In this document: in pieces, positions 1 to 18,586 of the stretch | Layout: the number at the start of each line of letters is the position of its first letter | How positions within the stretch are numbered: position 1 is the first letter of the stretch | IMG/VR virus record: IMGVR_UViG_3300018489_000278 | Length of the DNA stretch: 64,000 nucleotides | Strand: one strand, 5' to 3' | Source: a virus | Taxonomy: Duplodnaviria > Heunggongvirae > Uroviricota > Caudoviricetes | Program-made: the position numbers and the translations under genes | The notes under the pieces: generated by a model | What the model was told of the DNA's origin: nothing | What the model saw: the letters and a program-made list of their open reading frames with translations, nothing else | Database searches by the model: none

Positions 1-121
1 TAAACTATCACATCAGTGAATGTGTCCAGCCACGTTTCTGGAGCATTGGAAATACTGTAATAATCACAGAATGGGCATTTTGTGTAGCAGAAAGGAATAT
101 GAAGATAGAGGCCTTTGTTCA

Positions 122-1910
122 TTACTCAGTATCAGCCTTAAGCACCGACAAGAATGCTTCTTGTGGTATGTCTACCTGATTGAACTGTCTCATGCGCTTC
201 TTTCCAGCCTTCTGTTTTTCTAGAAGTTTCTTCTTTCTACTAACATCTCCTCCGTAGCACTTTGCTAAAACGTCCTTACGAAGGGGTTTTATGGTCTCAC
301 GGGCAACTATTCTGCCCCCTGCTTTTACCTGAATTACAACTTCCACCAGCTGTTTTGGTATGGTATGTTTCAAGTTTGATGCTACTTGCCTAGCAACCCT
401 TAGTACTTCACTCTTCGGAGCGAGCAACGTAAGGGCATCTAGTTTTTTACCGTTAATAAAAACCTCTATTTTGTCGACATCGGCTTCCTTGAAACCAATG
501 TGCTCATAGTCGAAAGACGCATATCCACGTGTTACACTTTTTAGTTGGTCGTAAAAATCAGTTATGATTTCTGCAAAGGGTAAATCGTATTCGAGTAAAA
601 CACGCTGCTGCGATATGTACTCCATGTGAAGCATTTTCCACGTCTGCCCTCACAAAGTTGAATAACAGAGCCCACATACTCTGATGGAACTACTACGGTC
701 CCCCTCACATAAGGCTCCTCCACCAGCTCCACTTCAGAAAAGTCTGGGAACTGCGAAGGATTGCGCACCTCAATGTACTCACCACTCCGTGTTAACACAT
801 GATATTCCACGTTGGGTGAGGTTAATATGAGATCCAAATCGAATTCTCTTTCAAGCCTTTCTCTAATGATGTCCATATGAAGAAGCCCCAAGAACCCACA
901 CCTAAAACCTGGGCCAAAAGCTTCGCTACTTTCCGGCTCAAACACCAAAGCTGCATCATTGAGCTGAAGCTTCTTCAAAGACTCGCGAAGTCTTTCAAAA
1001 TCCTCGTTCTCAGTAGGATAAATAGACGCAAAACCATGGGTTTCATTGCAGAAAAGCCTGGTATGGGAGCATCGGCAGGTCTCACCGCTGAGGTCATTGT
1101 ATCTCCCACCGGAACTTCGCGGATGTCTCTTATGTTGGCAGCCACATATCCCACGTCTCCTGCCTCTAAACTCTCCGTGGGCACCATCTTCAAGGAAAAA
1201 ACACCAACCTCAGTCACTTCAGATTCCAAACCGCTTGCCCAGAATCTGATCCGATCTCCTACTCTAACCTGTCCATTGAAAATGCGAACAACGGAAACTA
1301 CTCCTTTGTAAGTATCGTAAAAGGAATCGAACACAAGAGCCTGTAAAGGAGCATTTTCATCCCCATTCGGAGCAGGGATTTCCTTTACGAGCCTATCGAT
1401 AAGCTCTTCAATGCCAATTCCTTCTTTAGCTGAAACCAATACTGGATCAATATCGTCCTTTCCTAGAAGCTGGGACATGGCTCTCTTAGTACCTTCCACG
1501 TCAGCAGAAGGTAAATCGATTTTGTTAATGACGGGGACAATGGCTAAGTTGTGTTCCATGGCTTTGTAAGCATGTGCTACTGTTTGTGCTTCCACTCCCT
1601 GAGTTGCATCTACTAAAAGAATTGCACCTTCACAAGCAGCTAAGGACCTAGAAACTTCGTAGGAAAAATCGACATGCCCAGGCGTATCTATGAGGTTGAA
1701 CACGTAATCACCAATATGCAATCTAACTGGATGGCTTTTAATGGTGATCCCACGTTCGCGTTCCAAATCCATACTATCAAGCATCTGTTTCTGTAGTTTA
1801 TCTCGTCTCACTAACCCAGAAAGCTCCAAGAAACGGTCAGCTAACGTGGACTTGCCGTGGTCAATGTGCGCTATTATGGAGAAGTTTCTGATTTTGCTTC
1901 TATCAACCAT
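122..1910 (-). pseudogene. lepA: Elongation factor 4 (LepA) split over three reading frames (975-1910, 562-978, 122-634)
   Basis: N-terminal GTPase motif IIAHIDHGKSTLADR, a middle segment [23 protein letters not shown] and a LepA C-terminal segment lie consecutively on the minus strand in different frames; two frameshifts. Confidence 0.75.
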
Positions 1911-3097
1911 ACAATTCTCTCACTGAGCCACCATGCCAAATCAACTTTGGACTGCAAAGGTGCTTCTTCCACACCTCTTACTTTGCTTATGAACCAACCA
2001 CTGTTGGTGTCTACAGCAAATCCCGTCTGGGAAGTGTCAATACGGTTTGCAAATATGGCATCCACGTGTTTACGTTCCAGCTTTTCCTCAGCATCTTTGA
2101 TAACATCGGCGCCTCCAGCTGCAAAAGCAACGTAAACAGGCTTCGTGTATTTCGCTGCAAAGGAACCTACAACATCTGGTGTTGCTTTCAAAGTTAACGT
2201 TAGTTCCCCTTGTCGTCTTAATTTACCTTCTCTCCTCTCAGTGGTGAAGTCACCTACTGCAGCTGCCATTACAACTGCGTCCGCCTCCGGCAGGAAGTGT
2301 TCCATAAGCTGCATAAGCTCGCTAACAGATTCAAACTGCAGCAGACGAACACCTTGAGGTACATCTAAGGTTACAGGGCCACTTAGCAAAGTAACATCAG
2401 CACCTCTGAGTGCCAAAGCTTGCGCTAAAGCGTAACCCATCTTTCCACTGGAAGGATTTGATATAAACCTTACTTCATCAATGTACTCTCTGGTAGGTCC
2501 AGCAGTGACCACTATGTTTCTTCCACTTAAATCTTGTGGCACCACGGCTTTAGCTATGTGAAACAAAATCGTTTCTGTCTCGGGAAAACGCCCCTTACCC
2601 ACTTCTCCATCAGCTAAATGTCCAACCTCAGGCTCTACTACAACGCATCCCAAGTTTCTGAGCTTATGTAGATTCTCTTGAGTTATCTTGTTTTCATACA
2701 TGCGCACGTTCATTGCAGGAACCAACACCAATGGTTTATCACAGCCCAGTACTGTGCTAGTCAAGAGATTATCAGCGAAACCGTTAGCAATTTTTGCCAA
2801 CGTGTTTGCCGTGGCAGGAGCTACAACCAACACATCTGCCCAGCGCCCTAGTTCAATGTGCAAACTGCGGATATTTGATGACCAGTAGTCCTGATCAGTG
2901 TAAGCAGCGTCGTTGGTAAGGGAAACGAAACTCGTAGGCCCCACAAAATGCAAAGCTGATGCAGTCAGAATAGTTCGCACATGAGCATCAAACTTAGAAA
3001 GAGTAGAAGCTAAACTACAGGCCTTGAAAGCTGCAATGGAACCAGTTACTCCCAAGAGAATGTTTTTTCTGCGGAATATACTGCCAGGAATCCACAT
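1874..3097 (-). CDS. coaBC: Bifunctional phosphopantothenoylcysteine decarboxylase / phosphopantothenate-cysteine ligase
   Basis: 407 aa; N-terminal flavoprotein domain (ILLGVTGSIAAFK) plus C-terminal CoaB ligase domain; sits next to rpoZ-gmk as in many bacteria. Confidence 0.8.
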   Translation of the reverse strand: MWIPGSIFRRKNILLGVTGSIAAFKACSLASTLSKFDAHVRTILTASALHFVGPTSFVSLTNDAAYTDQDYWSSNIRSLHIELGRWADVLVVAPATANTLAKIANGFADNLLTSTVLGCDKPLVLVPAMNVRMYENKITQENLHKLRNLGCVVVEPEVGHLADGEVGKGRFPETETILFHIAKAVVPQDLSGRNIVVTAGPTREYIDEVRFISNPSSGKMGYALAQALALRGADVTLLSGPVTLDVPQGVRLLQFESVSELMQLMEHFLPEADAVVMAAAVGDFTTERREGKLRRQGELTLTLKATPDVVGSFAAKYTKPVYVAFAAGGADVIKDAEEKLERKHVDAIFANRIDTSQTGFAVDTNSGWFISKVRGVEEAPLQSKVDLAWWLSERIVWLIEAKSETSP

Positions 3098-3107
3098 ACA
3101 AAACTCA

Positions 3108-3305
3108 CTAGATGCGCAGTGTAACTGTGACTTTTCTTTCTGCTATGTCTTGAATGGCTCTTTCCACAGGAACCTCATAGGTAGGAGAATGAGATAATAC
3201 TTCTTTCTGTATTTTCTTAGCTGTCAAGCCTACCGCCACCACCACGGCATATCTAGGGAGTCCAGTAATTCTCTCCAGCTCTTCTAATGTCACCTGCTTC
3301 ATCAA
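3108..3305 (-). CDS. rpoZ: DNA-directed RNA polymerase omega subunit
   Basis: 65 aa with RYAVVVAVGLTAKKIQK resembling the RpoZ core; located between gmk and coaBC as is typical. Confidence 0.55.
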   Translation of the reverse strand: MMKQVTLEELERITGLPRYAVVVAVGLTAKKIQKEVLSHSPTYEVPVERAIQDIAERKVTVTLRI

Positions 3306-3482
3306 AAATACCTCCTTTTCTTAGTGATTCCACCATGGTGCGTGCCCTGTCCTCAGTTACAACAAAATCCACTAAAGACAGGATCTTCATTATATTTTCC
3401 ACAGCTTGATTTTACTTCCACGTTGACCACAAAAAAATGTGATTCCCTGAGGTAGTCGAGCTCCTGCAAGCTACGAAGCAGC

Positions 3483-3917
3483 CTAAGCTGCTGCTCGTCC
3501 ATTCTTCAGTGCCTCTTTCATCAAACGATGCTTAAGCTCATCCAAGGAAGGAGGCAACAAAAATATTAAAATAGCATCTGGAAACCTCCTCCGAACCTGC
3601 ATCGCTCCCTGCATATCGATTTCTAATATTACCTTCTTGCCCTGTTCCAAATGCTGCATAACGAAATCCTTGGGCGTGCCATAGTAAGAACCATGAACAT
3701 ATGCCCATTCCAGCAATCGATCAGTGGCAACCATCTTCTTGAACGTGGAGTAGTCCACAAAATAGTAATCCTTACCATCAACTTCTCCGGGTCTTCGGCT
3801 ACGCGTGGTCACTGAGATGGAAAGTACAAGTTCCTTATCCCTGTTTAATAGTTCACTTACCACAGTACCCTTCCCAACACCGGAAGGACCACTGATGACA
3901 ATGAGTCTACCGCCCAC
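3483..3917 (-). CDS. gmk: Guanylate kinase, 3' end apparently frameshifted
   Basis: P-loop ISGPSGVGKGT, guanylate kinase fold. The C-terminal ~60 aa expected for Gmk are readable only in other frames of 3330-3482 (e.g. LRLLRSLQELDYLRE), with an A7 run near 3432. Confidence 0.75.
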   Translation of the reverse strand: MGGRLIVISGPSGVGKGTVVSELLNRDKELVLSISVTTRSRRPGEVDGKDYYFVDYSTFKKMVATDRLLEWAYVHGSYYGTPKDFVMQHLEQGKKVILEIDMQGAMQVRRRFPDAILIFLLPPSLDELKHRLMKEALKNGRAAA

Positions 3918-4229
3918 TTAAACGTCCTCTCCTGATTCCTTTTGTAGTTCCGCTTCTTGTTCAGTGATGGGCTCTATTCTTTCTTCCTCTTCTTCCTCAA
4001 GGCGGCTCACCAAGGTATCAGGCAACACCGCAGATAGCACGATAAAGCCACCTTCTGTCAAAATAGCAGCCCTGGTTCTACGCCCAAAAGTGGCATCCAC
4101 AAGCCGCCCTTGCTCTTTTGCAAGCCTTATCATCCGCCTTATCGGGGCAGAGTCAGGGCTGACAATGCCAATTATTTTTGATACAGAAATGTACGAACTA
4201 AAGCCAATATTAAGGAAACCACTTTCCAC
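3918..4229 (-). CDS. remA: DUF370 / RemA-family regulator (YlzA-like)
   Basis: NIGFSSYISVSKIIGIVSPDSAPIRRMIRLAKEQGRLVDATFGRRTRAAILTEGGFIVLSAV matches the RemA core; immediately upstream of gmk as in Firmicutes. Confidence 0.65.
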   Translation of the reverse strand: MESGFLNIGFSSYISVSKIIGIVSPDSAPIRRMIRLAKEQGRLVDATFGRRTRAAILTEGGFIVLSAVLPDTLVSRLEEEEEERIEPITEQEAELQKESGEDV

Positions 4230-4288
4230 TTTTCTATTATATCATTCAAAGTCTGCTCAGCTGCAAAAGCTTAATACTTTTTACCGAT

Positions 4289-4975
4289 TTATTGACTTAC
4301 GTTTAGAACCACCTTACCTGAATTACCTGACATCATAGCGGAGAAGGCCGCTTCATAATCTTTGAAGTCGAATTGATGCGTGATTACCTTCTTCAAATCT
4401 ACTTTTCCGCTACTAACTAACGATACACCCAAGTCCCAAGTCTCCCATAGTCTACGCCCAGTTATGCCTCTTATAGTTATGCCCTTAGAAACTACATTAT
4501 TCGCTAAATCCAGAGAAACGCGGTTGTCGGGAAGACCTAAGATCGCCATTTCTCCTCCCGGCACAATCATTTCAAGACCCTGATTAAGCGCCTTTTCGCT
4601 ACCACTCATTTCTAAAACCACATCTGCGCCGCCAAGGTTCTGCACAATCTGGACGGGATCTTGTTCCTTAACATTAATAACCACGTCTGCTCCCACATCA
4701 GAAGCAAGCTTTAGCCTATAGTCAGAAAGATCTGTGGCAATAATCTCTACCGCACCCAGCGCTTTGGCCACCGGTATTGCCATGACCCCAATGGGGCCAG
4801 CTCCCGTAACCACAACCCTTTTGCCTCTAACATCCACAGATTGCACCGTGTGGACCGCATTGCCAAAGGGTTCCAAGACCGAACCAGCTTCCAAGGGAAC
4901 ACTGGCAGGCAGCTTGACCAAGTTCTCTTCGGGGATGGCTATGTACTCGGCAAAAGCTCCGTCCATGTGAACTCC
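4289..4975 (-). pseudogene. tdh: 3' two-thirds of a zinc-dependent alcohol dehydrogenase, most like L-threonine 3-dehydrogenase; N-terminal ~115 aa missing
   Basis: Rossmann motif VVVTGAGPIGVMAI and C-terminus FSAMMSGNSGKVVLNV typical of Tdh/sorbitol-DH family; the ORF runs into the composition junction at about 4975 with no N-terminal catalytic domain. Confidence 0.55.
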
Positions 4976-5643
4976 TATGATTCTTGTATTTTCGTATTGT
5001 CGATCCTGTGAAGGCTGTGTATGAGGTTGTTAATTTACCCGATGCAATTGAAAAACTTGCGCAGACAACGCTAAGAAATGTTATAGGTAAGATGGATTTA
5101 GACGAGACTCTTTCTTCAAGAGATAAGATAAATGCAGAATTGAAAACCGTGATGGAAGATGCAACAACTAAGTGGGGAGTAGAGATAAAAAGAGTTGAGC
5201 TTCAAAACATAAATCCACCTAAAAATATACAAGAAACGATGGAAAAGCAAATGCGTGCAGAAAGAGATAAGAGAGCTGTTATTTTAGAGGCAGAAGGCGA
5301 GCGAGACGCAAATATAAATAGGTCAGAAGGCATTAAACAAGCAGAAATCAACAAAGCAGAAGGAGATAAACAAGCAAAGATACTTCAAGCAGAAGGAGAA
5401 GCAGAGGCAAGAGTAAAAGTTGCAGAAGCAGAAGCAAAAGCAATACAAATTATTATGAATACTATTCAGTCAAAAGGAGATCCACTTAATTATTTGATTG
5501 CAACTAAGTATATTGATACGCTTAAAGAAATGGTATCAGGTCAAAACAATAAAGTTATCTATTTGCCGTATGAAGCATCTGCATTATTGGGTTCTATTGG
5601 TGGTATAAAAGATATGTTTCATGAGAGAAAAAGTAGTGAATAA
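4976..5643 (+). pseudogene. SPFH/band-7 (stomatin-like) protein lacking its N-terminal membrane anchor and first ~100 aa
   Basis: YFRIVDPVKAVYEV...TLRNVIGKMDLDETLSSRDKIN...WGVEIKRVELQNI matches the middle and C-terminal parts of prokaryotic stomatins; the ORF opens directly at the junction. Confidence 0.55.
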
Positions 5644-6214
5644 TACGTTTATATGGAAGAGAGGTAAAAAGTATGAAAAAAACATTAAAGTTATTATTCC
5701 CATAGTAATTATAGCTGTTGTTTGTTTGGTTATTCTTTTTCTTTATTTTATGCCTTTTATGAAAACAATTACTATGGATGTCGCAGTACAAAAAGGTGTC
5801 GCTGTAGATGGTGGCAACGGGTGGGATGGCGTTCAGGGTAGTGTTGCTTACATAAAACTTCTTCCTGTCTTTCCTAAGTTTTTGATTGTTAATGCGAGTA
5901 AAGATGATGTTACTTATTCTATAAAAGTACCGATTAAAGGTAATGTTGTTGTCACTTTAATACATGAGACTAATTTTGCAGATGAAGTAAAAGAAGATAT
6001 GAAAAATAATCCAAAAGAAACAGAAATGGATGCAGAGGACAATGTAGCCAAGAAACATAACATTAAGCTTGATGTTGTTTTCGGTAATTTAAAGAGCGGT
6101 AATGTCTATTTTGGAGAGTATGTTGATATTAGTGTATTAAAGCAAGGTGATTTTATAGCGATTAATAGAGAAATTGCAACAGGCAATCTTTCTATATTCA
6201 AGGAAGTACCATAA
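5621..6214 (+). CDS. Hypothetical membrane-anchored protein (single N-terminal TM)
   Basis: 197 aa ORF, hydrophobic segment IIPIVIIAVVCLVILFLYF near the N-terminus; no recognisable domain. Confidence 0.3.
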   Translation: MREKVVNNTFIWKRGKKYEKNIKVIIPIVIIAVVCLVILFLYFMPFMKTITMDVAVQKGVAVDGGNGWDGVQGSVAYIKLLPVFPKFLIVNASKDDVTYSIKVPIKGNVVVTLIHETNFADEVKEDMKNNPKETEMDAEDNVAKKHNIKLDVVFGNLKSGNVYFGEYVDISVLKQGDFIAINREIATGNLSIFKEVP

Positions 6215-6285
6215 GAGAGGAAACCTGCTGGTGGTTTTGAATAATTTTGCTATGATGATAGTAAAAGAACGGAGGTAAAAAAAGA

Positions 6286-9200
6286 ATGACAAAAGAAGAA
6301 ATGCGCCAGGCTTTTATTAACGAATATCGTCATGCGCAATCTTTAATCAATATGCCAAAAGTTTCAGAACCAAATATTGCAAGCGAAGTAAAGTCACTGT
6401 TCAAGATTCTAACAAATACTGATCCAATTCTGGGAGATGAATCAATAGATATGACTGTTTATTATCCTGATACTCATGAAAATGCTGGTAAAGTTTTTGC
6501 TATATTTGAAATGAAAAGTCCGAACAACACAAATGAAATGGTAGCATTATCAGACTTCAATAGAAAAGCATTCCATGAGATATTGCATCATTTTTTAGTT
6601 GCAGAATTTGGTGGTGATGATAAATTTTCTCAGGTAGAGTATTATATTATTACAGATTTAAAGTCGTGGTTCGTGTTTGATCGTGCTACATTTATTGACT
6701 GTTTTGGATACATTACACTTAAAGGATTAGCTAATAAATTATCAATAGACAAAAAGACTCTTTCAGGTTTTAGTATAAAAAAGCAGGAAGCTTATAATAT
6801 TATTTCAGACTTTATCGAGAAAAACCCAAAAGCAATGTCTTCATTTGTAAAAAAGCAGAAGATTACTATTTTGTAATTCAACAATATTCGGATGATGATG
6901 CAACAAAACTATTTGATTTTTTATACGATAAATTTGTGTTCAATAAACCAAAAGAGTTTGTTTCTCTCAATAAGGATTTCTACAACGAATTGCTCTACAT
7001 TATGGGGCTGAAAGAAAAAGAAGCTAACGGTAGAAAACAAGTTGTTTATAATGGTGTTGCTAATTCTTTTGCAGGTCAAATTACCAAAGGTACAGTAAAA
7101 GAAAATGACTTACTTCCAGAAGATAAGATACAGTTGTTGATAGTATGGTTTAATAGAATACTTTTTTGAAGTTGTTGGAAACCAATCTTGTTAAATTCAA
7201 TGGCGGAGATGAGAAGTATAAGTTTTTAAATAAGCAGAAGATTATAGATTCAGCAACTTTAGACAAATTGTTCTTTGATGTAATGGCGGTAGAAGAAGAA
7301 AATCGCACAATGAAGCAGTTTGAAAATATTCCCTACTTGAACAGTTCTCTATTCGAAGAACAAGAAGTAGAAAAGAACGGTCAACACATTAGTATGATAA
7401 GCAATGCTTCTTTACCTCTGTATTCTAAAACTGTCTTAACCTTAACTGAACAGCAAAAACAAAAGGCAGAGCTTCCACTATTGGATTATTTGTTTCAGTT
7501 TCTCGATGCTTACAATTTTAATTCAGGAAAGGAAGGAGCGAGCGAGAGACTAATCAGTCCGGCAGTATTAGGTCTTGTATTTGAAAAGTTAAATGGCTAC
7601 AAAGATGGGAGCTTCTATACACCTTCTGAAATTACTAATTATATGGCAGAAGAGGCAATTAAAAGAGTCATACTTGAAAGAATTAGAGAAGAGGTGAATC
7701 TGGATTTTAAGAATTATAAAGAATTAACTTCTCTTTATATCGATGCATCTGCTGGAGAAAGAGAAAAAATAAAAGAAGCAGTAACGAGCTTAAAGATTGT
7801 AGATCCAGCGGTTGGTAGCGCCCATTTTTTAGTCTCTGCGTTAGATGTGCTTCTTGCAATTTGGTACGATCTATGTATAGGTGAAATGGAGAGCATAAAC
7901 CATAGCCAGTATAAAATTTACTTTAAGAACCAAGGAGCAATACCAGTTAAAGTAAAACAAGATGGTTCAGAAGAAGTTTTTGCGTACCAAAGAATAGAGA
8001 AAGATAATGGTAAGTTTTTCGTAAATGGAGAAGATCAAGCGTTTGAAAAAGCTTTGTTTGATACGAGAAGGTATATTATAGAGAACAATCTATTTGGTGT
8101 TGACATTAATCCAAAAGCGGTTGAAATTGCAAGGTTAAGGCTTTGGATCGAGCTACTAAAGAATACTTATTATATAGAACCTGATTTTATAAAGATGGAG
8201 ACACTACCTAACATAGATATTAACATTAAAGTTGGGGATAGTTTATTAGCTGAGATAGTAGAGATTAGAGATAGTCTGTTTGTTCTTGATTTACCTGATT
8301 ATTTAAAAAAGATACACGAGTATCAAGAAACAAATCAAAAAGAATTAAAAGAAAAGTTAAGAGAAGAGATTAACAAACAAAGGGAGAAACTGGTAGGAGG
8401 TGTAAATACTCAATATAAAGATTTTGTTTGGACTATAGATTTTCCTCAAATCCTAAATGATGACGGCACTGTTAGAGGTTTTGATGTTGTAATTGCTAAC
8501 CCACCGTATGGAGATTTACTCAAAGGTAAGGAAAAAGCATATGTAAGCAAGCATTATAAATTTGCTAAACCCGTGGATATATCGAGTCCTTTTCTAGAAC
8601 GTGGAATTGATCTTTTAAAAGATAAAGGATATCTTACTTATATTATAACTTATGCAATAACATTTAGTAAGGATTTTTCTGGCAATAGGTATCAGATTTT
8701 TAATAATTTTGAAGAATCGCATATTTATTCTTTTGATCGAGACAGATGTAGATTTTTTGAAAATATGAGCCAATCTGTTTCGATAATAAAATGCTTTAAC
8801 AAAAACCCAAAAGTTAAAAAGGGCATTTTCTCAAGTATTATGTTCAGGAATGCTCCTAATATTGATGAAATCGAGGTATCAAATTGTGATAAATATCTAT
8901 CAAATTGTGATAAATATCTTCTTCCAAAAGGTATATCATACGACAAACCTCATAGACTTCCGAAATTAGGAGGAGAAATTAATGTGAGAATATTAGATAA
9001 GCTATTAAAAAATGTTGATGTAATGAGAAGTATTTTAGGAAACGATAAAGATGAGAAAATATGGATTAGGACAAGCGGAAATTATTGGTATAATGCTTTT
9101 GACAGAGAACCCTATAAAAGCTCAAGCATTTCTGTGCTTTGTATAAGTAAAGGCTATGCAAATTTTGTTATTACTTTAATGAACTCCTCACTTTTCTACT

Positions 9201-9661
9201 TTTGGTTTAGAATTTATGGAAACGGCAGGAATATGAGCATGGATATATTGGAGAATTTTCCTTTAATAGATAAAAACAAGATATTAGACTACGATTTTTT
9301 AATGTCCAGAATGAAAACAAGGTTTATGAAGAAATTATTTTCTGTTTTCGATCAGAAGAGAGAGAGATTTCTAACAAGTAATATAAAATCTGAGATTGAT
9401 CTATTAGACTTAATTTTAGGGAGGTATCTTTATGGTCTCGGATTTGAAGAAATAGTTTATATTTTGAGTTATGATTCTGAGATCCGAGGTGGCAACAAGC
9501 TGGATAAATCTTTTATGGATATAGTAGATAAAATTATTTCAGCGAAAAAACAAGATCCTCAGGCAGATGTGAGTAAGTTAGAGAGAGAAATCGATAAGAT
9601 GGTTTATGAATTGTATGGATTGTCGGATGAAGAAGTTAATATTATTGAAAGAGGACTATGA
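6286..9661 (+). CDS. MmeI-like type IIG/IIL restriction-modification enzyme (nuclease-MTase-TRD fusion), interrupted by a stop and two frame changes (6286-6876, 6936-7169, 7166-9661)
   Basis: N-terminal PD-(D/E)xK-like YYPD...FAIFEMKSP; gamma-class N6-adenine MTase motifs FGVDINPKAVEIARLRLW and VVIANPPYG; long C-terminal target-recognition region; total span about 1125 aa. Confidence 0.6.
8878..8919 (+). repeat. Perfect 21-bp tandem duplication (atcaaattgtgataaatatct x2) inside the RM target-recognition region
   Basis: Read directly from the sequence; in-frame, duplicates the heptapeptide SNCDKYL. Confidence 0.9.
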
Positions 9662-9775
9662 ATAATAGATTGAGCAGTATGAAGTTTCGCACGACGTGTG
9701 AAGAGAAAAATTTTGATATAAGGCGAACTACAATCATTCTCAAGAGATTAGATGAAAGGAGTGTGAGATTAGAAA

Positions 9776-10390
9776 ATGGATTTTAAAGAAGATTTAAGCG
9801 ATAGTACTTTTGATTTTGCAAGAGTTGTCTGGCCTGTAATTAAGAAAAGGATTGGCGGTGGAGAATTTATGCCTGTCAATAATGTAACTAAGTTGTCTTT
9901 TTCTCAACAACTTGATAAATTGGCTGGCGTAAATGCATGGCAAGTTAATAATAATGTTGGTATTCGTGGTATAGATATCCGCGTTCAGTATGGTCATCCT
10001 TATGCTAGTTTTACCATTTGTTCTTCTGGTTCTTCTAGTAATTTTGCCGATTTTGAGAAAATAGTTTATGCGTTGCAACATAAAAATGAGGGTTGGGTAA
10101 CACCAGCATATACGATTCGAGCTTATTTGGATGAAAGAAAAACAGGTAAGTTGCTTTATGTTTGCATGATAAAGACGAACGACTTAATTAGTTATGTGAA
10201 TAATGGAAAGCCAGGAAAAGATTGGGAATTGCGAGACAATAAAAGAGACAACAATAAATTTATAGTTGTGTGGTGCAAAGATCTTAAAGACGCGAATGTT
10301 GATCTTTTTGAGTATATTGCTCTTGGTATTTCTATAGATTATCCATCACTGAAGACAATTTTAAATAATCGCGATAAAGAAGATAGATAG
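9776..10390 (+). CDS. Hypothetical protein (204 aa)
   Basis: Intact ORF with RBS; no motif recognised. Confidence 0.3.
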   Translation: MDFKEDLSDSTFDFARVVWPVIKKRIGGGEFMPVNNVTKLSFSQQLDKLAGVNAWQVNNNVGIRGIDIRVQYGHPYASFTICSSGSSSNFADFEKIVYALQHKNEGWVTPAYTIRAYLDERKTGKLLYVCMIKTNDLISYVNNGKPGKDWELRDNKRDNNKFIVVWCKDLKDANVDLFEYIALGISIDYPSLKTILNNRDKEDR

Positions 10391-10479
10391 TTGAGACACG
10401 ATGATAGATAATAATTGGAATAAGTGGCAGTTTTATTATTTTTGAATATAAAAAATATTATATTAGGAGGCTGAGCAGA

Positions 10480-11196
10480 ATGAATAATAATAACGATAAT
10501 AACAACAAATTAGGAGATTTTTTGGCTTATTTGAATGCAAATTATAATAAAATAACGAGCGAGAGGGATATGTTTTTGCGTGAAAGATGCGATGGTCCGT
10601 TAGTAAAAAGCGCTATTAATCTTTTAGTTGCTCCACCCAATGCACATAAAAGTACGGTTGCTTTTTTAATAGCATATAGTGGGCTTGTAAATAAGGAATT
10701 TAATAATGTTTTTTACTTTGATTTTAACAATTCCCCTAGTTTTTACCAGGGTCGCTATTGGGCATACAGAGAACAAGACCGGTTGTTTTATCTTACAGAA
10801 TATGATATGAATAAATTTTTTAATGATATCGATTGGTTGGCGAATAAAACACCAAGAGAAAAAGTGGTGAGTCTGATGAAAACAATGTCAGAGGATCAAT
10901 TTGGCGATCATTCGTATTTAATAGTTTTAGATGAAGTAGAGCAGTTTATTACTTATTTCAATTTTAATGAACTGCAAGACATGTATTCTTATTTACGATC
11001 AATAAGCTTTTTAAGAGGCACTGTGTTATTAATAGAGCATACATTGTTTCATGAACAAAATATAGAATTTAACGATATAGTTCTTAATTTTTTCTATAAT
11101 AGTGCAGATGTAGTTTTTTCTATCAAGGAGCAAAAAATCTGTAATAATGATGGAGCTATTAATGTTGAATTAGCATGCGAAAAACTAAATTATTGA
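10480..11196 (+). CDS. Putative P-loop NTPase-like protein with degenerate Walker A
   Basis: VAPPNAHKST (Walker A-like with H in place of G) and YLIVLDEVEQF (Walker B-like); asparagine-rich N-terminus. Confidence 0.3.
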   Translation: MNNNNDNNNKLGDFLAYLNANYNKITSERDMFLRERCDGPLVKSAINLLVAPPNAHKSTVAFLIAYSGLVNKEFNNVFYFDFNNSPSFYQGRYWAYREQDRLFYLTEYDMNKFFNDIDWLANKTPREKVVSLMKTMSEDQFGDHSYLIVLDEVEQFITYFNFNELQDMYSYLRSISFLRGTVLLIEHTLFHEQNIEFNDIVLNFFYNSADVVFSIKEQKICNNDGAINVELACEKLNY

Positions 11197-11285
11197 AGGA
11201 ACCTGAGAAACGCACAATAGAGATACCATTAAAATGAATTATAGTTTTTTTGCACAGTGTGCGAAAGATTTGGTGGCAAGATACT

Positions 11286-11405
11286 ATGTTGAAGACGATT
11301 TCTTTATTTTCTGGTGCAGGTGGGTTAGATATTGGCTTTATGCTGGCAGGATATGATATTATTTGTGTGAATGATATTAATCCTATTCTCTTCCTACTTC
11401 ATTAA
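11286..11405 (+). pseudogene. Relic of a DNA cytosine-5 methyltransferase (first ~38 aa only)
   Basis: MLKTISLFSGAGGLDIGFMLAGYDIICVNDINP is the C5-MTase motif I (FxGxGG) and start of motif II, then a stop; no remainder downstream. Confidence 0.45.
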
Positions 11406-11454
11406 ATAGAACATAGTCAAATCGTATTGAGATATAATGGCTAATAGGTAGTAG

Positions 11455-11489
11455 AAGTATTGTGTTTTATGTTATTATATGTTATAATA
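11455..11489 (+). promoter_or_regulatory. Putative promoter with extended -10 (tgtTATAAT, 11480-11488)
   Basis: TGnTATAAT about 20 nt upstream of the 11508 start, in an AT-rich intergenic region. Confidence 0.3.
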
Positions 11490-11507
11490 GAAATGGAGGT
11501 AAAATAG

Positions 11508-11681
11508 ATGGTAACAATAGGTAATAAAAAGTTTTATGAAGTTGAAGAGGTTCAAAAGATGTTCAACATTAAGAATCCAAGAACTATCTATCATTGGATA
11601 AAAGAAGGTAGAATAAAAGCGCAGAAAATTACCAAAAGATGGTATATACCTGAAGAAGAAGTGAAGAAGTTATTGTCTTGA
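11508..11681 (+). CDS. Excisionase/MerR-type helix-turn-helix DNA-binding protein (57 aa)
   Basis: KFYEVEEVQKMFNIKNPRTIYHWIKEGRIKAQKITKRWYIPEEEV matches the Xis/HTH_17 pattern; strong RBS ggaggt. Confidence 0.5.
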   Translation: MVTIGNKKFYEVEEVQKMFNIKNPRTIYHWIKEGRIKAQKITKRWYIPEEEVKKLLS

Positions 11682-11693
11682 GCGGAGAGAATA

Positions 11694-12218
11694 ATGACAA
11701 AAGAGATTGAAGAAACTATAACTACTCTTACGGAGCATCTTAATGAGTTAACATCACAAATTGTAAATGATATTGTTAAGGTTTATAAAATGAATGGTTT
11801 GTCTGATAACGAAGTAAAAAGAGAGATTATTGAGAAGTATGCGGTCACGCTTTGTGATGTCAAAGACATAGAAGCATATTTAGAGAAGCTAAAAGGCGTA
11901 TTCGATGATACAGAGACTATGCAAGGCCACGAGGATAAAGAACAAACGAAAAGAATAGATGAAGAAGATTTTATTTTTGTTGACAAACCACATAAGAGAG
12001 CGTCGTCTTTTATATCAGATAAAGATATTAAGAACATCGTTATAGACATATTGAACACGCAAGGTGAGATGAATCAAAGAGATCTTGTTATATCCGTGAA
12101 GAAAAGAATACCTACTGGTGCATTAAGAATTATGTCTATACTCGATAAAATGGCTTCTGCGCGTGAAGTTTCTATCAAAAGAGGAAATACGAATGCGAAA
12201 GTATATTTTTTGTCTTGA
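11694..12218 (+). CDS. Hypothetical protein (174 aa)
   Basis: Intact ORF; no motif recognised. Confidence 0.3.
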   Translation: MTKEIEETITTLTEHLNELTSQIVNDIVKVYKMNGLSDNEVKREIIEKYAVTLCDVKDIEAYLEKLKGVFDDTETMQGHEDKEQTKRIDEEDFIFVDKPHKRASSFISDKDIKNIVIDILNTQGEMNQRDLVISVKKRIPTGALRIMSILDKMASAREVSIKRGNTNAKVYFLS

Positions 12219-12299
12219 GAAAAGATGGTATTTGATGGATAAAGGTGGTAATTTTTGATTATTGTTTTCTGTTATAATATAGTTAGATAAGGAATAATA

Positions 12300-12938
12300 A
12301 TGAACAAGATAGATAAGGTAAACGCTACATTTGAGCAATTGATAAAGCAAATGGACGATATAAGAATAGCTCTTAATTTAGCTGTTGAAAATAATAGACA
12401 GAAGATTAATGATGAAAAAATAGAGAAGCTTGTGCGTAAAACGCATCGTATACAAATATTTGAACAAGAAGTACAAGCAGTTTTAGATGAGTGGAAAGAT
12501 ATTGTTAATAATTTGAATATTTTAGAGTTTATTCCTGACGATGACGAGCAAGAAGTAATAGAGATACATGGTGGTGCGACCAATAAAGGGGTTGTTAATG
12601 CAGAAGATTCGTTACCAGTTAATATTGATTCTTCTCTTCTTGTTTATGTAGATGCAATTTTAAGTATTGTTTTGCGTATCGGAGGTAATGTGAGTATTGG
12701 TAGTATTGTGGAAGAAATATATCAACAAGTAGATGCTGGCACAATTCCTTTTAGTATAGGTGAATCTAGGTTAAGGTGGTCAGATGCAATAAATTTGGCT
12801 ATTGATTCAATGTCTAAAAGCGGGCTTGTGAATTACAATAACAAGAAAGGCATTTGTACTGTTACAGAGAAAGGTATTTTATACTTTAATAAAATGCATG
12901 CGCATAACAACGCGCAAGAAGGAGGTAAAAATGGATAA
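12300..12938 (+). CDS. Protein with coiled-coil N-terminus and Mrr_N-like winged-helix C-terminus
   Basis: C-terminal SIGESRLRWSDAINLAIDSMSKSGLVNY..KGICTVTEKG resembles the Mrr N-terminal winged-helix domain. Confidence 0.35.
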   Translation: MNKIDKVNATFEQLIKQMDDIRIALNLAVENNRQKINDEKIEKLVRKTHRIQIFEQEVQAVLDEWKDIVNNLNILEFIPDDDEQEVIEIHGGATNKGVVNAEDSLPVNIDSSLLVYVDAILSIVLRIGGNVSIGSIVEEIYQQVDAGTIPFSIGESRLRWSDAINLAIDSMSKSGLVNYNNKKGICTVTEKGILYFNKMHAHNNAQEGGKNG

Positions 12939-13185
12939 TCATGTTGACGACAAAAGCGTAGAGTTGGATATTAAAACAGAAATGCAAAACATTGAAGACT
13001 TTATTAAAGAAGTTGATAAAGAAGGTGTTCATACGATAGATTCTGCTGAATTTAAAGGTATATTAGAAGGTATGTATATAATATTGGATTCATTTTTAGA
13101 ATACATAAAAGAAGGCACTTTCGACATCCATAGGAACTCTGATATTGTGGTTTCAGTGATTTCTGTATTGAGAGGGAGGTTTTAA
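12898..13185 (+). CDS. Hypothetical protein (95 aa)
   Basis: ORF with RBS, overlaps the upstream gene's stop. Confidence 0.25.
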   Translation: MRITTRKKEVKMDNHVDDKSVELDIKTEMQNIEDFIKEVDKEGVHTIDSAEFKGILEGMYIILDSFLEYIKEGTFDIHRNSDIVVSVISVLRGRF

Positions 13186-13368
13186 GTATGTCGAGTGGCA
13201 AATTATTTCGCGTTAAACATAAAGAGTGGAAGCATGAAACAAAGAATACTAATGTTAGGCATATGCAACACAGAGGAACTCAATCAGAATTTAGAAGAAA
13301 GATTAGAGAGGATACATTAAAAGCATTGGAAGAGTACCACGATGATATAAGAGAAGAGGAGAGGTAAT

Positions 13369-13659
13369 ATGAAAGAGAAAATAGCCTTAGACGATGTGAG
13401 AATAGAAAGTTTGTCCGAAGATCTTAAAAAAGGTTTTCCCAAAATCGATAAGTTGTATATTGCTAAAGAGCATTATATTCTTGTAGATTTTGTGAACAAA
13501 GATTATGATATCGATACATTATTAGATTTGAGATCTCTAATTGATAAATTATGGCCTGATACAAAAATAGAAATTCTCGTAAAAGATTTTATTGATAACG
13601 AAATTCTTGAAGATTTGATGTCTGATTCTGTGTGTGTATTTGATAGAGACAAGAAATGA
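13369..13659 (+). CDS. Small protein upstream of HepT; possible divergent MntA-like antitoxin partner
   Basis: 96 aa, contains a DYDID acidic cluster but no canonical GSxxRG nucleotidyltransferase motif; assignment rests on position upstream of HepT. Confidence 0.25.
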   Translation: MKEKIALDDVRIESLSEDLKKGFPKIDKLYIAKEHYILVDFVNKDYDIDTLLDLRSLIDKLWPDTKIEILVKDFIDNEILEDLMSDSVCVFDRDKK

Positions 13660-14207: not shown

Positions 14208-14654
14208 GTGTATATGAGTAAGTATACGTTATACACAGACGGTGCTTCGAGAGGAAACCCTGGCAAATCCGCTATTGCATATGTTATCGTAAGAGACGAC
14301 GAACATGTCGAAGCGTTTCATGCAGAATACATTGGTGATAAAATTACAAACAATACAGCAGAATACATGGCAATTATTAAAGGTTTAGAAGAATGTGAAA
14401 GAAAGGGTATCAAAGATGTAGAAATTGTATCTGATTCTAAAGTTGTCATTTCACAATTAAAAGGTGAATATAAAGTATACGAGCAACATTTGAAAGTTTT
14501 GTACGAACAAGTCAAGAATATAGCAAAAAGTTTTCGTAGTGTTTCTTGCACGCATACAACAAGAGACAATTATTTCATACAAATGGCAGATAGTTTGTGC
14601 AATGAAGTATTAGATGAGGTGGGTAAAGCAATAGATGGTGGGATCGAGAAATAG
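14208..14654 (+). CDS. rnhA: Ribonuclease H (RNase HI-like)
   Basis: YTDGASRGNPG and NNTAEYMAIIKGLE are the catalytic D/E motifs of RNase H. Confidence 0.75.
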   Translation: MYMSKYTLYTDGASRGNPGKSAIAYVIVRDDEHVEAFHAEYIGDKITNNTAEYMAIIKGLEECERKGIKDVEIVSDSKVVISQLKGEYKVYEQHLKVLYEQVKNIAKSFRSVSCTHTTRDNYFIQMADSLCNEVLDEVGKAIDGGIEK

Positions 14655-15132
14655 AAGAGCTTTTACTTTGATAGAAGAGCTTATTATTATCGCTATTATT
14701 TCTATTTTGTTGTTTGCTGTTATTATAAGGCCTTCAGATATACTCTCTTTTGCTAAAGTAAGAACTTGGCAAGCAGAGATGGAAACACTGAAAAAAGCAT
14801 TGATGTCTTATTCTGCAAGCGTAGGAAGTGGTAGCTATCCAACTCTTTCAGGCGTAAAAGAGCTAAACGAGTGGCTGTCATCGAATGGTGTGTCTAGATA
14901 CATAGACGAAAAGATTGTTAATCCTTTTCACGCTAAAGCAACTATCAATATGGGTGCAACAAACGATCCTCAACCTCTAAACGATCTACCGGAAGGTAGT
15001 AATGCTAATTTGTGGATTGGTTACATAGTATCAGATGTAACAATAGGCGGAGAGACTGTTCCAAGAGGTCAATTCACTATCTACTATAAGATTAACGATA
15101 CTGTTTATTCTTTGTCAAATATAGGAGGATGA
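14635..15132 (+). CDS. Prepilin-like protein (type IV pilin/pseudopilin N-terminus)
   Basis: N-terminus RAFTLIEELIIIAIISILLFAVII resembles a class III signal peptide/methylation motif. Confidence 0.45.
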   Translation: MVGSRNRRAFTLIEELIIIAIISILLFAVIIRPSDILSFAKVRTWQAEMETLKKALMSYSASVGSGSYPTLSGVKELNEWLSSNGVSRYIDEKIVNPFHAKATINMGATNDPQPLNDLPEGSNANLWIGYIVSDVTIGGETVPRGQFTIYYKINDTVYSLSNIGG

Positions 15133-15133
15133 T

Positions 15134-15820
15134 GTGAGGATCGGAGGTTTTCAACCTTTTTCTGTTATAGATTATCCAGATAAAACATGCGCTATTATTT
15201 TTAGTGCTGGTTGTAATCTCCGGTGTCCTTTTTGTCATAACAGAGAACTTGTTTTGCCTGATGAGTATCCGGAGGAAGTTGATTTTAATGATATATTGGC
15301 GAAGTTAGATAGACGAAGAGGTCTTATAGATGCAGTCGAGTTTACAGGTGGAGAGCCACTTATACACAACGATATATTAGATCACATAAAAACAGTTAAA
15401 CGAATGGGTTTTTTAGTTAAGCTTGATACAAATGGTTCGCTCCCAGATGCTTTAATTAAAGTCATACCTTACGTTGATTATGTTGCTATGGACATTAAAG
15501 CTTCTTTGGATAAATATAAAGAGGCAACAAGCGTGTCTAATCTTGACTTATCTTCTATAAAAGACAGCATAGATATGATAAAAATAGCTGGTAAAGACTA
15601 TGAATTTAGAACCACGCTTATGAAAAACTTTGTAGAGAACGATGAGGATATTATACAAATAGGTAATTTGATTAGAGATGCAAAACATTACTACATTCAA
15701 AGGCCACAGGCACAGAATATGTTAGATCCTAATTTTATGATTAAAGTATTTTCTGACGATGAGACAAAACATTTTATAGAAGTAATGAGTAAATTTGTTC
15801 AAAAAATCAGTATAAGATAA
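15134..15820 (+). CDS. nrdG: Radical-SAM activase, most likely anaerobic ribonucleotide reductase activating protein
   Basis: CNLRCPFCHN CxxxCxxC cluster near the N-terminus, VEFTGGEPL; nrdD lies 12.5 kb downstream. Confidence 0.6.
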   Translation: MRIGGFQPFSVIDYPDKTCAIIFSAGCNLRCPFCHNRELVLPDEYPEEVDFNDILAKLDRRRGLIDAVEFTGGEPLIHNDILDHIKTVKRMGFLVKLDTNGSLPDALIKVIPYVDYVAMDIKASLDKYKEATSVSNLDLSSIKDSIDMIKIAGKDYEFRTTLMKNFVENDEDIIQIGNLIRDAKHYYIQRPQAQNMLDPNFMIKVFSDDETKHFIEVMSKFVQKISIR

Positions 15821-15836
15821 AAGAGGTGGGGTAAGG

Positions 15837-16445
15837 ATGTTATTTGAAGACATAGTAATTTTAGACGAAATAAGAGATGAACTCTTTCCTTTACAAGACG
15901 AAGAGAAGCGTCTTTTAGAAGAATCTATACTTAAAGAGGGAATAAGAGAACCTTTAATAGTATGGATTCCACAAGAAGGTCCATATAAAGGTAAAAAGAT
16001 ACTCGTTGATGGGCATAACAGATTGGATGTAGCTAAAAGACATAATTTGAAATTTAAAATTACCATTAAGCAGTTTTCTGATTTAGAAGAGGTACTAAGT
16101 TGGGTTGTAAGGAATCAGTTAGGTAGAAGAAATCTTACAGACGAGCAAAAAAGATACCTATATGGGAAGTTATACAATTTGCAAAAGAAAAGTTATGGCG
16201 ACCCTAACAGATTCTCTGCAAGTGATCAAATTGATCACATGGAAGACACTCCGTCTGGCTTGCAAAAAGAAACTCCACGAGAGAATAATAAACCAAGAAC
16301 ATCAGATAAAATTGCAGAATCAACAGAATATACAGGAGCTACAATAAGAAGGTATGGTGCATTTGCAGAAGCAGTGGACCATGTTAAAAGGTATCACCAA
16401 CTGTGGCATACAAGATACTTAATGGAGAAGTTAAAGATGCACTAA
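15837..16445 (+). CDS. ParB/Srx-like nuclease domain protein, possibly the N-terminal part of a ParB-MTase fusion
   Basis: ILVDGHNRLDVAKRHN ParB N-domain motif; its 3' end overlaps the next MTase ORF by 43 nt in another frame. Confidence 0.5.
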   Translation: MLFEDIVILDEIRDELFPLQDEEKRLLEESILKEGIREPLIVWIPQEGPYKGKKILVDGHNRLDVAKRHNLKFKITIKQFSDLEEVLSWVVRNQLGRRNLTDEQKRYLYGKLYNLQKKSYGDPNRFSASDQIDHMEDTPSGLQKETPRENNKPRTSDKIAESTEYTGATIRRYGAFAEAVDHVKRYHQLWHTRYLMEKLKMH

Positions 16446-17227
16446 CGACATTGCCTTCTTTTACTAAGAAAGCACCTGAAGAAGTATTACCTGATGTCGT
16501 TAAGAAGATAGAAGAGGGAGAAAAGAGTATAAAGAGTGCGCTTAAAAAAGTTGTTAGAGAAAAAGAAATAGAAGAAGCTGATAAAGTTGTTTTACCGCCA
16601 GTTATAGATATACGCTTTGGTGATTTCAAGGAAGTTCTCCAAGATGTAGAGCATGTAGATGTTATTATTACAGATCCCCCATATAGGCAAGAAGAGATAA
16701 ATTCTTGGGATGCATTAGGTAAATTTGCACAAGAGAAACTTAATGACGGAGGATATTTGATAGCTTATTCAGGTCAGTCTCATCTTTTTGAAGTGCAGTC
16801 TATTCTGTCAAAGTATTTAGATTATGTTTGGGTATTTTGCTTGTATTTTAACGGAGGACCTACTCAAATAGTTGGTGGTGTAAATGTAGTATGTAATTGG
16901 AAGCCTATTCTTGTTTTCGGTAAGAATATTAAAAAGTTTGAGAAACCTACTTCTGATGTAGTATTGTCTAATAGAAGAGAGAAAGATCTTTACGATCATC
17001 AACAAAATTTAGATGCAGTTAAGCAGTTAGTTGAAACTTTTTCGAAGCCTGGTGATATTGTATGCGATCCGTTTGTGGGATCTGGCACGACAGCTATTGC
17101 ATGCAAGTTAACCAATAGACAATTCGTCGGCGCAGAAATTAACGAAGAAACTTATAAATTAGCAGTAGTAAGACTCTCTAAGGAGCAAGAGCAACATGAC
17201 GAGACGGGAGAAAACGGGCAAGCGTGA
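16403..17227 (+). CDS. Beta-class DNA methyltransferase (N6-adenine or N4-cytosine), orphan
   Basis: VIITDPPYRQ (motif IV) precedes DPFVGSGTTAIA (motif I); no adjacent endonuclease. Confidence 0.7.
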   Translation: MAYKILNGEVKDALTTLPSFTKKAPEEVLPDVVKKIEEGEKSIKSALKKVVREKEIEEADKVVLPPVIDIRFGDFKEVLQDVEHVDVIITDPPYRQEEINSWDALGKFAQEKLNDGGYLIAYSGQSHLFEVQSILSKYLDYVWVFCLYFNGGPTQIVGGVNVVCNWKPILVFGKNIKKFEKPTSDVVLSNRREKDLYDHQQNLDAVKQLVETFSKPGDIVCDPFVGSGTTAIACKLTNRQFVGAEINEETYKLAVVRLSKEQEQHDETGENGQA

Positions 17228-17603
17228 TTTGACTTTTAGCCAGTGGGTGAGAGATAACTTACCGGATAGTAGTACTGGTTTTAGAGTAACTGATTTAGAT
17301 TTTGTATTTTTTAATGAAGAGACAAATACGCTAATGTTGATGGAGACTAAGCAGAATGGTGCAGAAGTAAGACATTTTCAGTCTCGTTTATTCTATATAA
17401 TAGATGCTCTTCTTTCAGTTGGCTCTAAGGTAGTAATACCAGGTGTTGGAAGAATAAAATACTTAGGTTTCCATACACTTCGTTTTGAGAATAAAGGATT
17501 TGATGATGGAAAAGCTTGGTTTGACGGGAAAGAGATTACTGCAGATTTATTTAAACAAATGATAGAGGAGAAATTTCAGAAACATGATGAAAGAAGTATC
17601 TGA
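17196..17603 (+). CDS. Hypothetical protein (135 aa)
   Basis: Intact ORF overlapping the upstream stop. Confidence 0.25.
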   Translation: MTRREKTGKRDLTFSQWVRDNLPDSSTGFRVTDLDFVFFNEETNTLMLMETKQNGAEVRHFQSRLFYIIDALLSVGSKVVIPGVGRIKYLGFHTLRFENKGFDDGKAWFDGKEITADLFKQMIEEKFQKHDERSI

Positions 17604-17952
17604 TTATTTTAAAGAAGATATAACAAGTATCGCCTCTGCTTATAATAATTTCATCAAAACAAACGATGAAACAGATCTTTACGATATTGGCCCCATGGAT
17701 TATGTATCAGAGGCAGATTCGTTGGACGAAGTTTCATATTTTTGTTGGTCAGTTGGTAAAACACCGCATAGAGAGATCAGGTTTTATTTTAACGAAGACA
17801 ATAGCCTCGCCATGATAGATTACGAAGTGTATAATGGGTCGCAAAGTGAACCTATTGTTTTACATGATGGAGATGTTTATAATTTATTAGAAGCTGTTTT
17901 TATGAATGTATTTTTTGATACAGAGGTAGAAATCCAGGAAGAGGAAAGATAA
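17584..17952 (+). CDS. Hypothetical acidic protein (122 aa)
   Basis: Intact ORF overlapping the upstream stop. Confidence 0.25.
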   Translation: MMKEVSDYFKEDITSIASAYNNFIKTNDETDLYDIGPMDYVSEADSLDEVSYFCWSVGKTPHREIRFYFNEDNSLAMIDYEVYNGSQSEPIVLHDGDVYNLLEAVFMNVFFDTEVEIQEEER

Positions 17953-17955
17953 ATA

Positions 17956-18555
17956 ATGGAAAAGCTATCTTTGTCTATTTTGTTAGATTCGTTTAATTTA
18001 GTAGAAGATGGTTACACTGCATTTCATTCAATACGAGTTACTAAGTATGCTTACGCATTCGGATGTTATTTAAGACTATCGCAAGAGGACTTGAAATCTT
18101 TGGTCGTGTCTGCGTATCTTCATGACATAGGAAAAGCAGGTATTGATGACTATATTTTGTTTAAAAATGGTCCTTTATCTGATGAAGAAAAAGTGAAAGT
18201 TAAAAGTCATGTTACAGAAGGTTTTCTTATGTTAGATGATATTAAAGAGCTTAGAAGAGAAGCAGATATAGTTTTGCTACACCATGAGAGGGTCGATGGA
18301 AGCGGTTATCCATATGGCATAAAAGGTAGTCAAATCCCATATCTTGATAGGATATTGTCTATTGTCGACGTATTTGATGCAATACATTCTAGAAGGCCTT
18401 ACAAGAAAGCGTGTTGCGTAGAAGAAGTAGTTAGTTGTATGCTAAAAGAAGAGAGTTTTGATCCGTTCCTACTTAAACAGCTTATTGAGATACAAGACAA
18501 TGTAGATAAGGTATCAAAGCTGTCAATAGAAAAGATATTAGAAAGAGTTCTTTGA
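17956..18555 (+). CDS. HD-GYP domain phosphohydrolase (candidate c-di-GMP phosphodiesterase)
   Basis: YLHDIGK ... LLHHERVDGSGYPYG are the HD and HHExxDGxGYP signatures. Confidence 0.7.
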   Translation: MEKLSLSILLDSFNLVEDGYTAFHSIRVTKYAYAFGCYLRLSQEDLKSLVVSAYLHDIGKAGIDDYILFKNGPLSDEEKVKVKSHVTEGFLMLDDIKELRREADIVLLHHERVDGSGYPYGIKGSQIPYLDRILSIVDVFDAIHSRRPYKKACCVEEVVSCMLKEESFDPFLLKQLIEIQDNVDKVSKLSIEKILERVL

Positions 18556-18586
18556 TGTATAATATAAAAGATAAGGAGAGTAGAAG

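Follow-up and report, generated by a model that had tools for sequence, protein, structure and literature searches.

The 64,000-nt stretch of DNA analyzed here (hereafter, the window) is probably a chimeric contig, a reading to which we assign a probability of roughly 70%, in which about 5 kb of Coprothermobacter proteolyticus chromosome (45% GC) would have been joined to an unrelated AT-rich element (32% GC). The left and right sides of the window derive from different genomes, as indicated by sequence identity, NCBI names, and GC content (0.45 vs. 0.32), and each of these parents was found uninterrupted past the breakpoint in other contigs, the first one through the tdh gene (L010-L015) and the second one through an SPFH/Band 7 gene (L003-L009 and L032-L034). 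Both populations belong to the same kind of community, that of anaerobic digesters or sewage. The original prediction had offered two explanations for the abrupt junction between these blocks, either a boundary left by the integration or rearrangement of a large mobile element or a chimeric assembly join, and our analysis favored the latter, because two genomes are involved, each parent is native past the break, and sibling contigs end one k-mer further on.

Two parental genomes and the anatomy of the join

The left block was compared with native contigs from several studies (L010-L015), and an identity of 98.9-99.7% was found over 4998 nt, with the gene order tdh-remA-gmk-rpoZ-coaBC-lepA shared with the window (Table 1) and all of these genes intact in the native DNA. 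Counted against L010, the SNPs in this block were 35 synonymous and 10 non-synonymous. SNPs of the Coprothermobacter haplotype are located at window positions 29, 476, 536, 703, 781, 795, 1092, 2290, and 2337. The high identity, the native gene order, and the mainly synonymous SNPs suggested that the left block is an ordinary chromosomal haplotype, and the GC-richer housekeeping block proposed upstream of the junction was thus recognized as lepA-coaBC-rpoZ-gmk-remA-tdh of an ordinary Coprothermobacter proteolyticus chromosome. In the minus-strand ORF at 4289-4966, the Pfam match was to the C-terminal ADH_zinc_N domain only, and the retained part of tdh was 100% identical to P0121, a 341-aa protein with the NCBI name Coprothermobacter proteolyticus. 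The 5' half of the gene, which the original prediction had proposed to seek elsewhere, was found as part of an intact 341-aa tdh, including within the same JGI sample series, where L012 (3300019140) crosses the gene natively. Upstream of tdh, the native contigs contain other Coprothermobacter genes, i.e., a Pyr_redox-family pyridine-nucleotide-disulphide oxidoreductase, an aminotransferase, and POR. The same locus was also to be compared in related genomes, and in L010-L015 tdh was intact and ran on into Coprothermobacter DNA; an intact tdh leading into the same AT-rich DNA, an arrangement that had been put forward as an argument against both integration and chimera, was not found in these contigs. 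Two Logan contigs annotated with a "225-aa tdh" (L016 and L017) were considered as independent junctions and discarded, as they are native contigs merely ending within tdh.

On the right side, the plus-strand ORF at approximately 4984-5643 matched the Band_7 profile only from position 66 of 176, and this SPFH fragment was 100% identical to the intact 325-aa protein P0001. Seven native element contigs retrieved from ENA, Logan, and JGI (L003-L009) all aligned with the window from exactly position 4987, and upstream of the intact SPFH gene they carry LemA and many small ORFans, all of them co-directional. Native element sequence reaches at least 10 kb upstream of 4987, and at least 32-33 kb at the level of the contig. 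Three more contigs of the same JGI series, L032 (3300019106), L033 (3300018722), and L034 (3300018672), were also native through the SPFH breakpoint. In agreement with the suggestion that the lost 5' half of this gene should be sought elsewhere in the assembly, it was located within an intact 325-aa gene, including in the same JGI sample series.

The GC content was 0.43-0.47 across window positions 1-5000 and 0.30-0.35 in each 1-kb bin of positions 5001-64000, and the sign of the GC skew switched at this composition step, from approximately -0.15/-0.2 on the left to approximately +0.2/+0.3 on the right; the drop from about 45% to about 30% GC first noticed at the junction was therefore confirmed by both the 1-kb bins and the skew flip. 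The description of 59 kb of AT-rich, strictly co-directional DNA downstream was equally accurate, since the plus strand carries every credible ORF from 4987 to 64000. The last window base aligned to native Coprothermobacter DNA was 4994, and the first one aligned to native element DNA was 4987. The parents have only the 8 nt TATTTTCG in common at the join, nothing being shared beyond these, and the alignments place the crossover point somewhere inside TATTTTCG, 4987-4994. The junction is as sharp as originally described, but its position is slightly further right than the predicted 4970-4985. The join is head-to-head, inside tdh on the minus strand and inside SPFH on the plus strand. The proposed N-terminal truncation of both genes was upheld, but not the sizes of the losses (about 115 aa for tdh and about 100 aa for SPFH), which are 107 aa in each case. 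The cut falls at residue 108 in both proteins (tdh, 341 aa; SPFH, 325 aa), which we took as a coincidence.

When 400,000 random joins of both parents were simulated, microhomology of at least 8 nt appeared with a frequency of 1.4 × 10−4. This result indicated that the join is not a random concatenation and that a homology-sensing process made it, and an origin by blunt ligation or arbitrary concatenation is unlikely. Moreover, 8 nt is too short for a de Bruijn fusion (k ≥ 21), indicating that chimeric molecules or reads must have existed.

Table 1. Coordinates of the features discussed in the text (window positions, unless stated otherwise).
Feature	Position	Strand	Basis or remark
Coprothermobacter proteolyticus chromosomal block	1-4994	-	Nucleotide identity and gene order vs. 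L010-L015
lepA	122-1910	-	Read as 3 ORFs
coaBC	1874-3097	-	Left block
rpoZ	3108-3305	-	Left block
gmk	about 3253-3917	-	Broken
remA	3918-4229	-	Left block
tdh 3' two-thirds (L-threonine 3-dehydrogenase, residues 108-341 of 341)	4289-4994	-	ADH_N missing
Left-block homopolymer differences	633, 1029, 3410, 3501, 3515		Split lepA into 3 ORFs and break gmk
8-nt microhomology TATTTTCG	4987-4994	.	Side-by-side alignment of the window vs. L011, L012, and L003-L009
SPFH/Band 7 gene 3' two-thirds (residues 108-325 of 325)	4987-5643	+	Band_7 match and identity to P0001
AT-rich (about 32% GC), ORFan-rich element, 59 kb in the window	4987-64000	+	Domains and collinearity
Right-block homopolymer differences	5665, 5675, 6276, 6848, and many more		Vs. 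native contigs
L030 join	L030 5630-5651, equivalent to window 5238-5258		Element to Anaerolineaceae uvrB 3' end

The same join and the same errors in other assemblies

An exact look-up of the window CoaBC retrieved two JGI contigs. L001 (3300018425, 5063 nt) reproduces window 1-5063 exactly in reverse complement, left terminus included, the window and this contig beginning at the same base, and L002 (3300018490, 4882 nt) corresponds to window 203-5085 with one homopolymer difference. The source of the window is a 91,451-nt JGI contig, as deduced from P0282, a 211-aa truncated SPFH call, and the join was found in three assemblies labelled as different samples, i.e., the window source, 3300018425, and 3300018490. 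No publications were found under the sample and run accessions. The two shorter contigs end 77 nt (L001) and 99 nt (L002) past position 4987, and both values are standard k values of SPAdes; we infer a SPAdes-type assembler, as well as the sequencing platform of the samples. In a de Bruijn graph, an edge stops at the first k-mer lying wholly in another path only if the vertex has a second incoming edge. The k-mer-exact ends of L001 and L002 thus suggested that the native SPFH path is present in both samples and that the Coprothermobacter edge is a side branch. L001 runs unbroken at 4994 from Coprothermobacter DNA into the element, suggesting that the native tdh continuation is weak or absent in that graph.

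The identical join in three assemblies counts against a chimera, because chimeras arising independently in different libraries would not be expected to share the exact breakpoint. The window, L001, and L002 also contain the same five errors in the Coprothermobacter block, some of them in runs of 2-4 bases. Mistakes in runs this short are indicative of a consensus built at low depth, and three such consensuses, if independent, would not agree on all of them; the agreement reflects either reads or a product common to the assemblies, or else systematic errors. The five shared errors therefore make the independence of the three assemblies doubtful, and the repeated occurrence of the join carries less weight as evidence than it would seem to at first sight. 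In the AT-rich part, the comparison of the window with contigs of 3300018425 and 3300018490 gave 4 gaps in 5 kb and 3 gaps in 15 kb, located in homopolymers.

When the left block was compared with native DNA, all five indels were one-base length changes within A/T runs. Across the JGI series (Ga0193551, Ga0193580-85, Ga0192806, and Ga0181980), about 0.2-1.6 homopolymer differences per kb and almost no substitutions were observed, and in L012, a native contig of this series, tyrS, POR, gmk, and lepA are split likewise. Pseudogenization of the left block was considered and rejected, because it shows A/T homopolymer indels only, the same error type is present in the right block and in L012, and the SNPs are mainly synonymous. 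As judged from these sequence comparisons, the apparent pseudogenes lepA and gmk are consensus errors.

Origin of the join

We propose that a polymerase would have switched templates at the 8-nt microhomology during amplification or library preparation, generating chimeric reads, and that a few such reads would have formed a thin side branch in the de Bruijn graph, linking a low-coverage Coprothermobacter edge to the high-coverage element path. In two samples, this edge would have been left by the assembler as a separate contig of roughly 5 kb, and in the 91,451-nt JGI contig the same edge would have been extended into the element. Under this mechanism, no gene would be biologically truncated, and nothing would be integrated. 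Template-switch chimeras of polymerase amplification (MDA or PCR) were reportedly described by Lasken and Stockwell in 2007. Like the join analyzed here, such chimeras have microhomology of a few to about 20 nt, unrelated templates, and no recombination signals; the difference is the recurrence in three assemblies, which requires a shared amplified product or shared reads. The join also resembles inter-genome metagenome chimeras, as the halves match two genomes at approximately 100%, each of them native past the break, with an abrupt change in composition and skew and with sibling contigs ending one k-mer past the join. Typical graph chimeras, however, form at shared repeats of at least k, whereas only 8 nt are shared here, so chimeric reads are needed too.

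The same data contain a second example, in the same element gene. In P0281, a member of the SPFH cluster, residues 1-198 of SPFH run in frame into a UvrB UVR domain. The contig L030 (JGI 3300014366, Ga0181980_1018460) is element DNA up to the equivalent of window position 5258, followed by 2.8 kb at 48-50% GC, and the proteins encoded on this non-element part are Anaerolineaceae in NCBI MAGs. Comparison with native uvrB contigs showed that the exact 21-nt word GATGGAAAAGCAAATGCGTGC at the L030 join is common to both parents, a sharing between the element and Anaerolineaceae uvrB that is due to chance, and 21 is the smallest usual k. On the evidence of this shared word, L030 is clearly a textbook assembly-graph chimera, indicating that assemblies of the element do contain inter-phylum chimeras; besides, the fusion of the element to two unrelated phyla is hard to explain by residence in a host. 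In eight other element gene clusters, only frameshift fragments were found, with no chimeric tails. The possibility that L031 was the reciprocal product of the second chimera was discarded, because this contig proved to be native DNA of the element whose end is full of errors. A terminal repeat of 272 bp (4987-5258), or a physical end of the genome, was also contemplated as the cause of both chimeras and dropped, as the L030 join is the 21-nt uvrB word and native contigs run through the region.

Microhomology-mediated end joining and replicative template switching in vivo are likewise marked by a microhomology such as these 8 nt, and such a process could have joined the Coprothermobacter chromosome to a broken element molecule, giving a minority lineage in one repeatedly sampled reactor or enrichment. 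We consider such a real join unlikely. The presence of the same junction in three assemblies fits it, but the frameshifts look technical, and their being common to the three assemblies argues for shared reads; in addition, the essential gmk is frameshifted, and with this reading the block cannot belong to a working chromosome. The microhomology is unlikely to occur by chance (P = 1.4 × 10−4), and L001 is continuous at 4994 with no native tdh branch seen, both in favor of an in vivo event, but the k-mer-exact contig ends show that the graphs concerned also contain the native SPFH path. The element is clonal in all these samples (0-2 mismatches), as expected for one culture or reactor, and it has plasmid-like maintenance genes (ParB-like, ALP actin-like, DnaB, and DnaN); however, there is no independent host link to Coprothermobacter, the 13-point GC gap between host and element is large, and this SPFH gene occurs in a fusion with Anaerolineaceae DNA as well. 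When a plasmid or phage undergoes microhomology-mediated illegitimate recombination with a chromosome, as happens in aberrant excision and specialized transduction, there is likewise a short microhomology, a non-specific site, and truncation of both genes, but here there was no second junction and no sign that the element lives in Coprothermobacter, and native forms dominate. A single crossover at TATTTTCG would also give a reciprocal junction, J2, with the predicted sequence TCTCGAGATAGATGCAATTCTCTATTTTCGCAAGCGTGATACATGTTTCGCC and a 186-aa fusion ORF composed of the SPFH N-terminus and Coprothermobacter antisense. Neither a reciprocal nor any other second junction has been recorded: when the first 110 aa of SPFH were searched against a protein collection that includes other contigs of the JGI series, the matches returned were all 105-192 aa long with at most 63% identity, and the J2 fusion ORF was absent. 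This search also missed the full-length P0001 and seems to favor length-matched proteins, so its negative result is moderate, not absolute.

The composition step and the passage from housekeeping DNA to 59 kb of co-directional foreign DNA are also what the attL/attR junction of a prophage or ICE looks like, and the join could be thought of as the edge of such a canonical mobile element, or of an integrative plasmid, that had integrated into tdh with a deletion. This reading is barely credible. It is contradicted by native contigs in which the element extends upstream of the break: the join falls within the element's own SPFH gene, whereas an integration boundary would not be internal to it. 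The Pfam search found no integrase among the first ten genes right of the join, nothing of note was found around 4700-5300 in terms of att sites, direct repeats, or hairpins, and there was neither a target duplication nor an element end at the join; a tRNA or conserved target, as found at prophage and ICE junctions, was likewise missing here. An HTH_17/excisionase-like domain does occur on a ParB-like protein of the element, but distant from the join (59837-61306), the tdh locus is intact in all the other Coprothermobacter contigs, and no reciprocal junction is on record. With the break inside an element gene, no integrase, att site, target duplication, or reciprocal junction, and a fusion of this gene to DNA of another phylum elsewhere, the first of the two explanations originally offered was not supported. 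A purely in silico join without chimeric reads, made by a contig merger, gap closer, or scaffolder acting on a short overlap, is in our judgment very improbable. Window 1-5063 equals L001 exactly, which would fit an L001-like contig merged via a 77-nt overlap, and L030 shows that in silico chimeras occur in these data; nevertheless, L001 and L002 already hold the join plus 77 or 99 nt of the element, so the join predates contig merging, and the join within these two contigs needs k-mers spanning it, 8 nt being below any usual assembler overlap. We thus retain the template-switch chimera as the preferred reading.

The AT-rich element and the meaning of the contig

Look-ups with ThyX and DnaB placed the remainder of the window on a 111,788-nt contig of JGI 3300018772, and a 33.6-kb upstream contig from the same sample extends the element, so it measures at least about 145 kb. 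In each of the element stretches examined (window 4987-64000, L003/L004 upstream, and L027 downstream), a quarter of the genes at most, and often far fewer, had a Pfam match, and most of the element proteins have no Pfam or PHROGs family. The genes that could be assigned are related to replication and partition (DnaN, DnaB, ParB-like, and an ALP actin-like partition protein), to nucleic-acid and nucleotide metabolism (RNase H, NrdG/NrdD, RNA ligase, ThyX, Tmk, and DNA methyltransferases), and to defense or toxins (type IIG RM, HepT, and AbiEii), along with five pilin-like proteins, an S1 peptidase, a STIV_B116-like protein, and an M50 peptidase. The genes are strictly co-directional, and the GC skew is strongly positive. 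No tRNA genes or Rfam matches were detected in the window, and no capsid, portal, or terminase was found among the element genes, with no structural PHROGs match. A megablast of window 5000-29999 against a phage collection gave no nucleotide match, and one exact-word scan of GTDB indicated that the element is absent from it. Exact-pattern scans with a 40-mer located immediately to the right of the join gave no match in viral_contigs, metagenome_contigs, and genome_contigs, suggesting that these samples are absent from those collections. The element proteins carry no organism names in any source. Attempts to classify the element as a phage were unsuccessful, given the lack of a megablast match, DnaB matches that are only generic, and no structural PHROGs; from its gene content, we regard it as a large, unclassified extrachromosomal element whose partition genes make it plasmid-like.

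The window is collinear with native contigs of other samples over 4980-13616, 31086-51715, and 51987-64000, with 0-2 mismatches over the checked collinear stretches, except for the error-laden first 600 nt or so of L031, a contig that shows 17 mismatches over its full 8.4 kb. The element is nearly clonal in digesters and sewage, with 0-2 mismatches over up to 20 kb (4987-6862, 31086-51715, and 51987-64000 against L003-L009 and L018-L029), the outlier being the ENA contig L007, with 8 mismatches in 1.1 kb. The near-clonal contigs came from the JGI series, ENA assemblies (one contig labelled HEND19-1), Logan SRR5196688/9, and ERR6015526, and such clonality of an element between unrelated studies is unusual.

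Some element genes were found in pieces. The type IIG RM gene (DUF7149, DUF7814, and an Eco57I/MmeI-type methylase; 6286-9661) is read as three ORFs (6286-6876, 6936-7169, and 7166-9661), and the splits differ by sample, with 196, 55, and 828 aa in L031 and more pieces in L032 and L033; these may be homopolymer errors, or the gene may be genuinely phase-variable or split. The anaerobic ribonucleotide reductase is also fragmented, with an ATP-cone ORF (28336-28857) separated by approximately 120 nt from the NrdD ORF (28980-30413), which begins at profile position 91, and a 70-aa NRDD-family ORF lies approximately 40 kb further downstream (L027 17518-17730). This could be the result of a frameshift error, or nrdD could be a split or intron-containing gene. 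Four pilin-like proteins with the N-terminal methylation motif are clustered within window 14635-24208 (14635-15132, 20887-21648, 21641-22174, and 23615-24208), a fifth one with a weak motif is located within 22186-23640, and the cluster encloses a 762-aa secreted S1 peptidase with Cu_amine_oxidN1 and fn3 domains (18587-20875). Finally, L025 (JGI 3300014366, Ga0181980_1181345) is collinear with window 40049-43452 past nt 733, and its positions 1-733 contain a 218-aa gene on the opposite strand that was unmatched by the window or the other loci compared; the segment may be specific to one strain of the element, or it may mark a further misjoin.

If the join had been formed in vivo, the element would be physically linked to a Coprothermobacterota host, and chromosome-element hybrid molecules would persist in a community. 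Taken at face value, the contig would suggest a false integrated giant mobile element, truncated genes, pseudogenes (lepA and gmk), and a host for the element. Binning, host prediction, and "auxiliary host gene" calls on the 91-kb contig should therefore drop its first 4,986-4,994 bases. Collectively, the interesting object here is the AT-rich element itself, at least about 145 kb long, almost entirely made of ORFans, equipped with DnaB, DnaN, ParB-like, and ALP partition genes of its own, and virtually free of SNPs between the unrelated studies in which it recurs.
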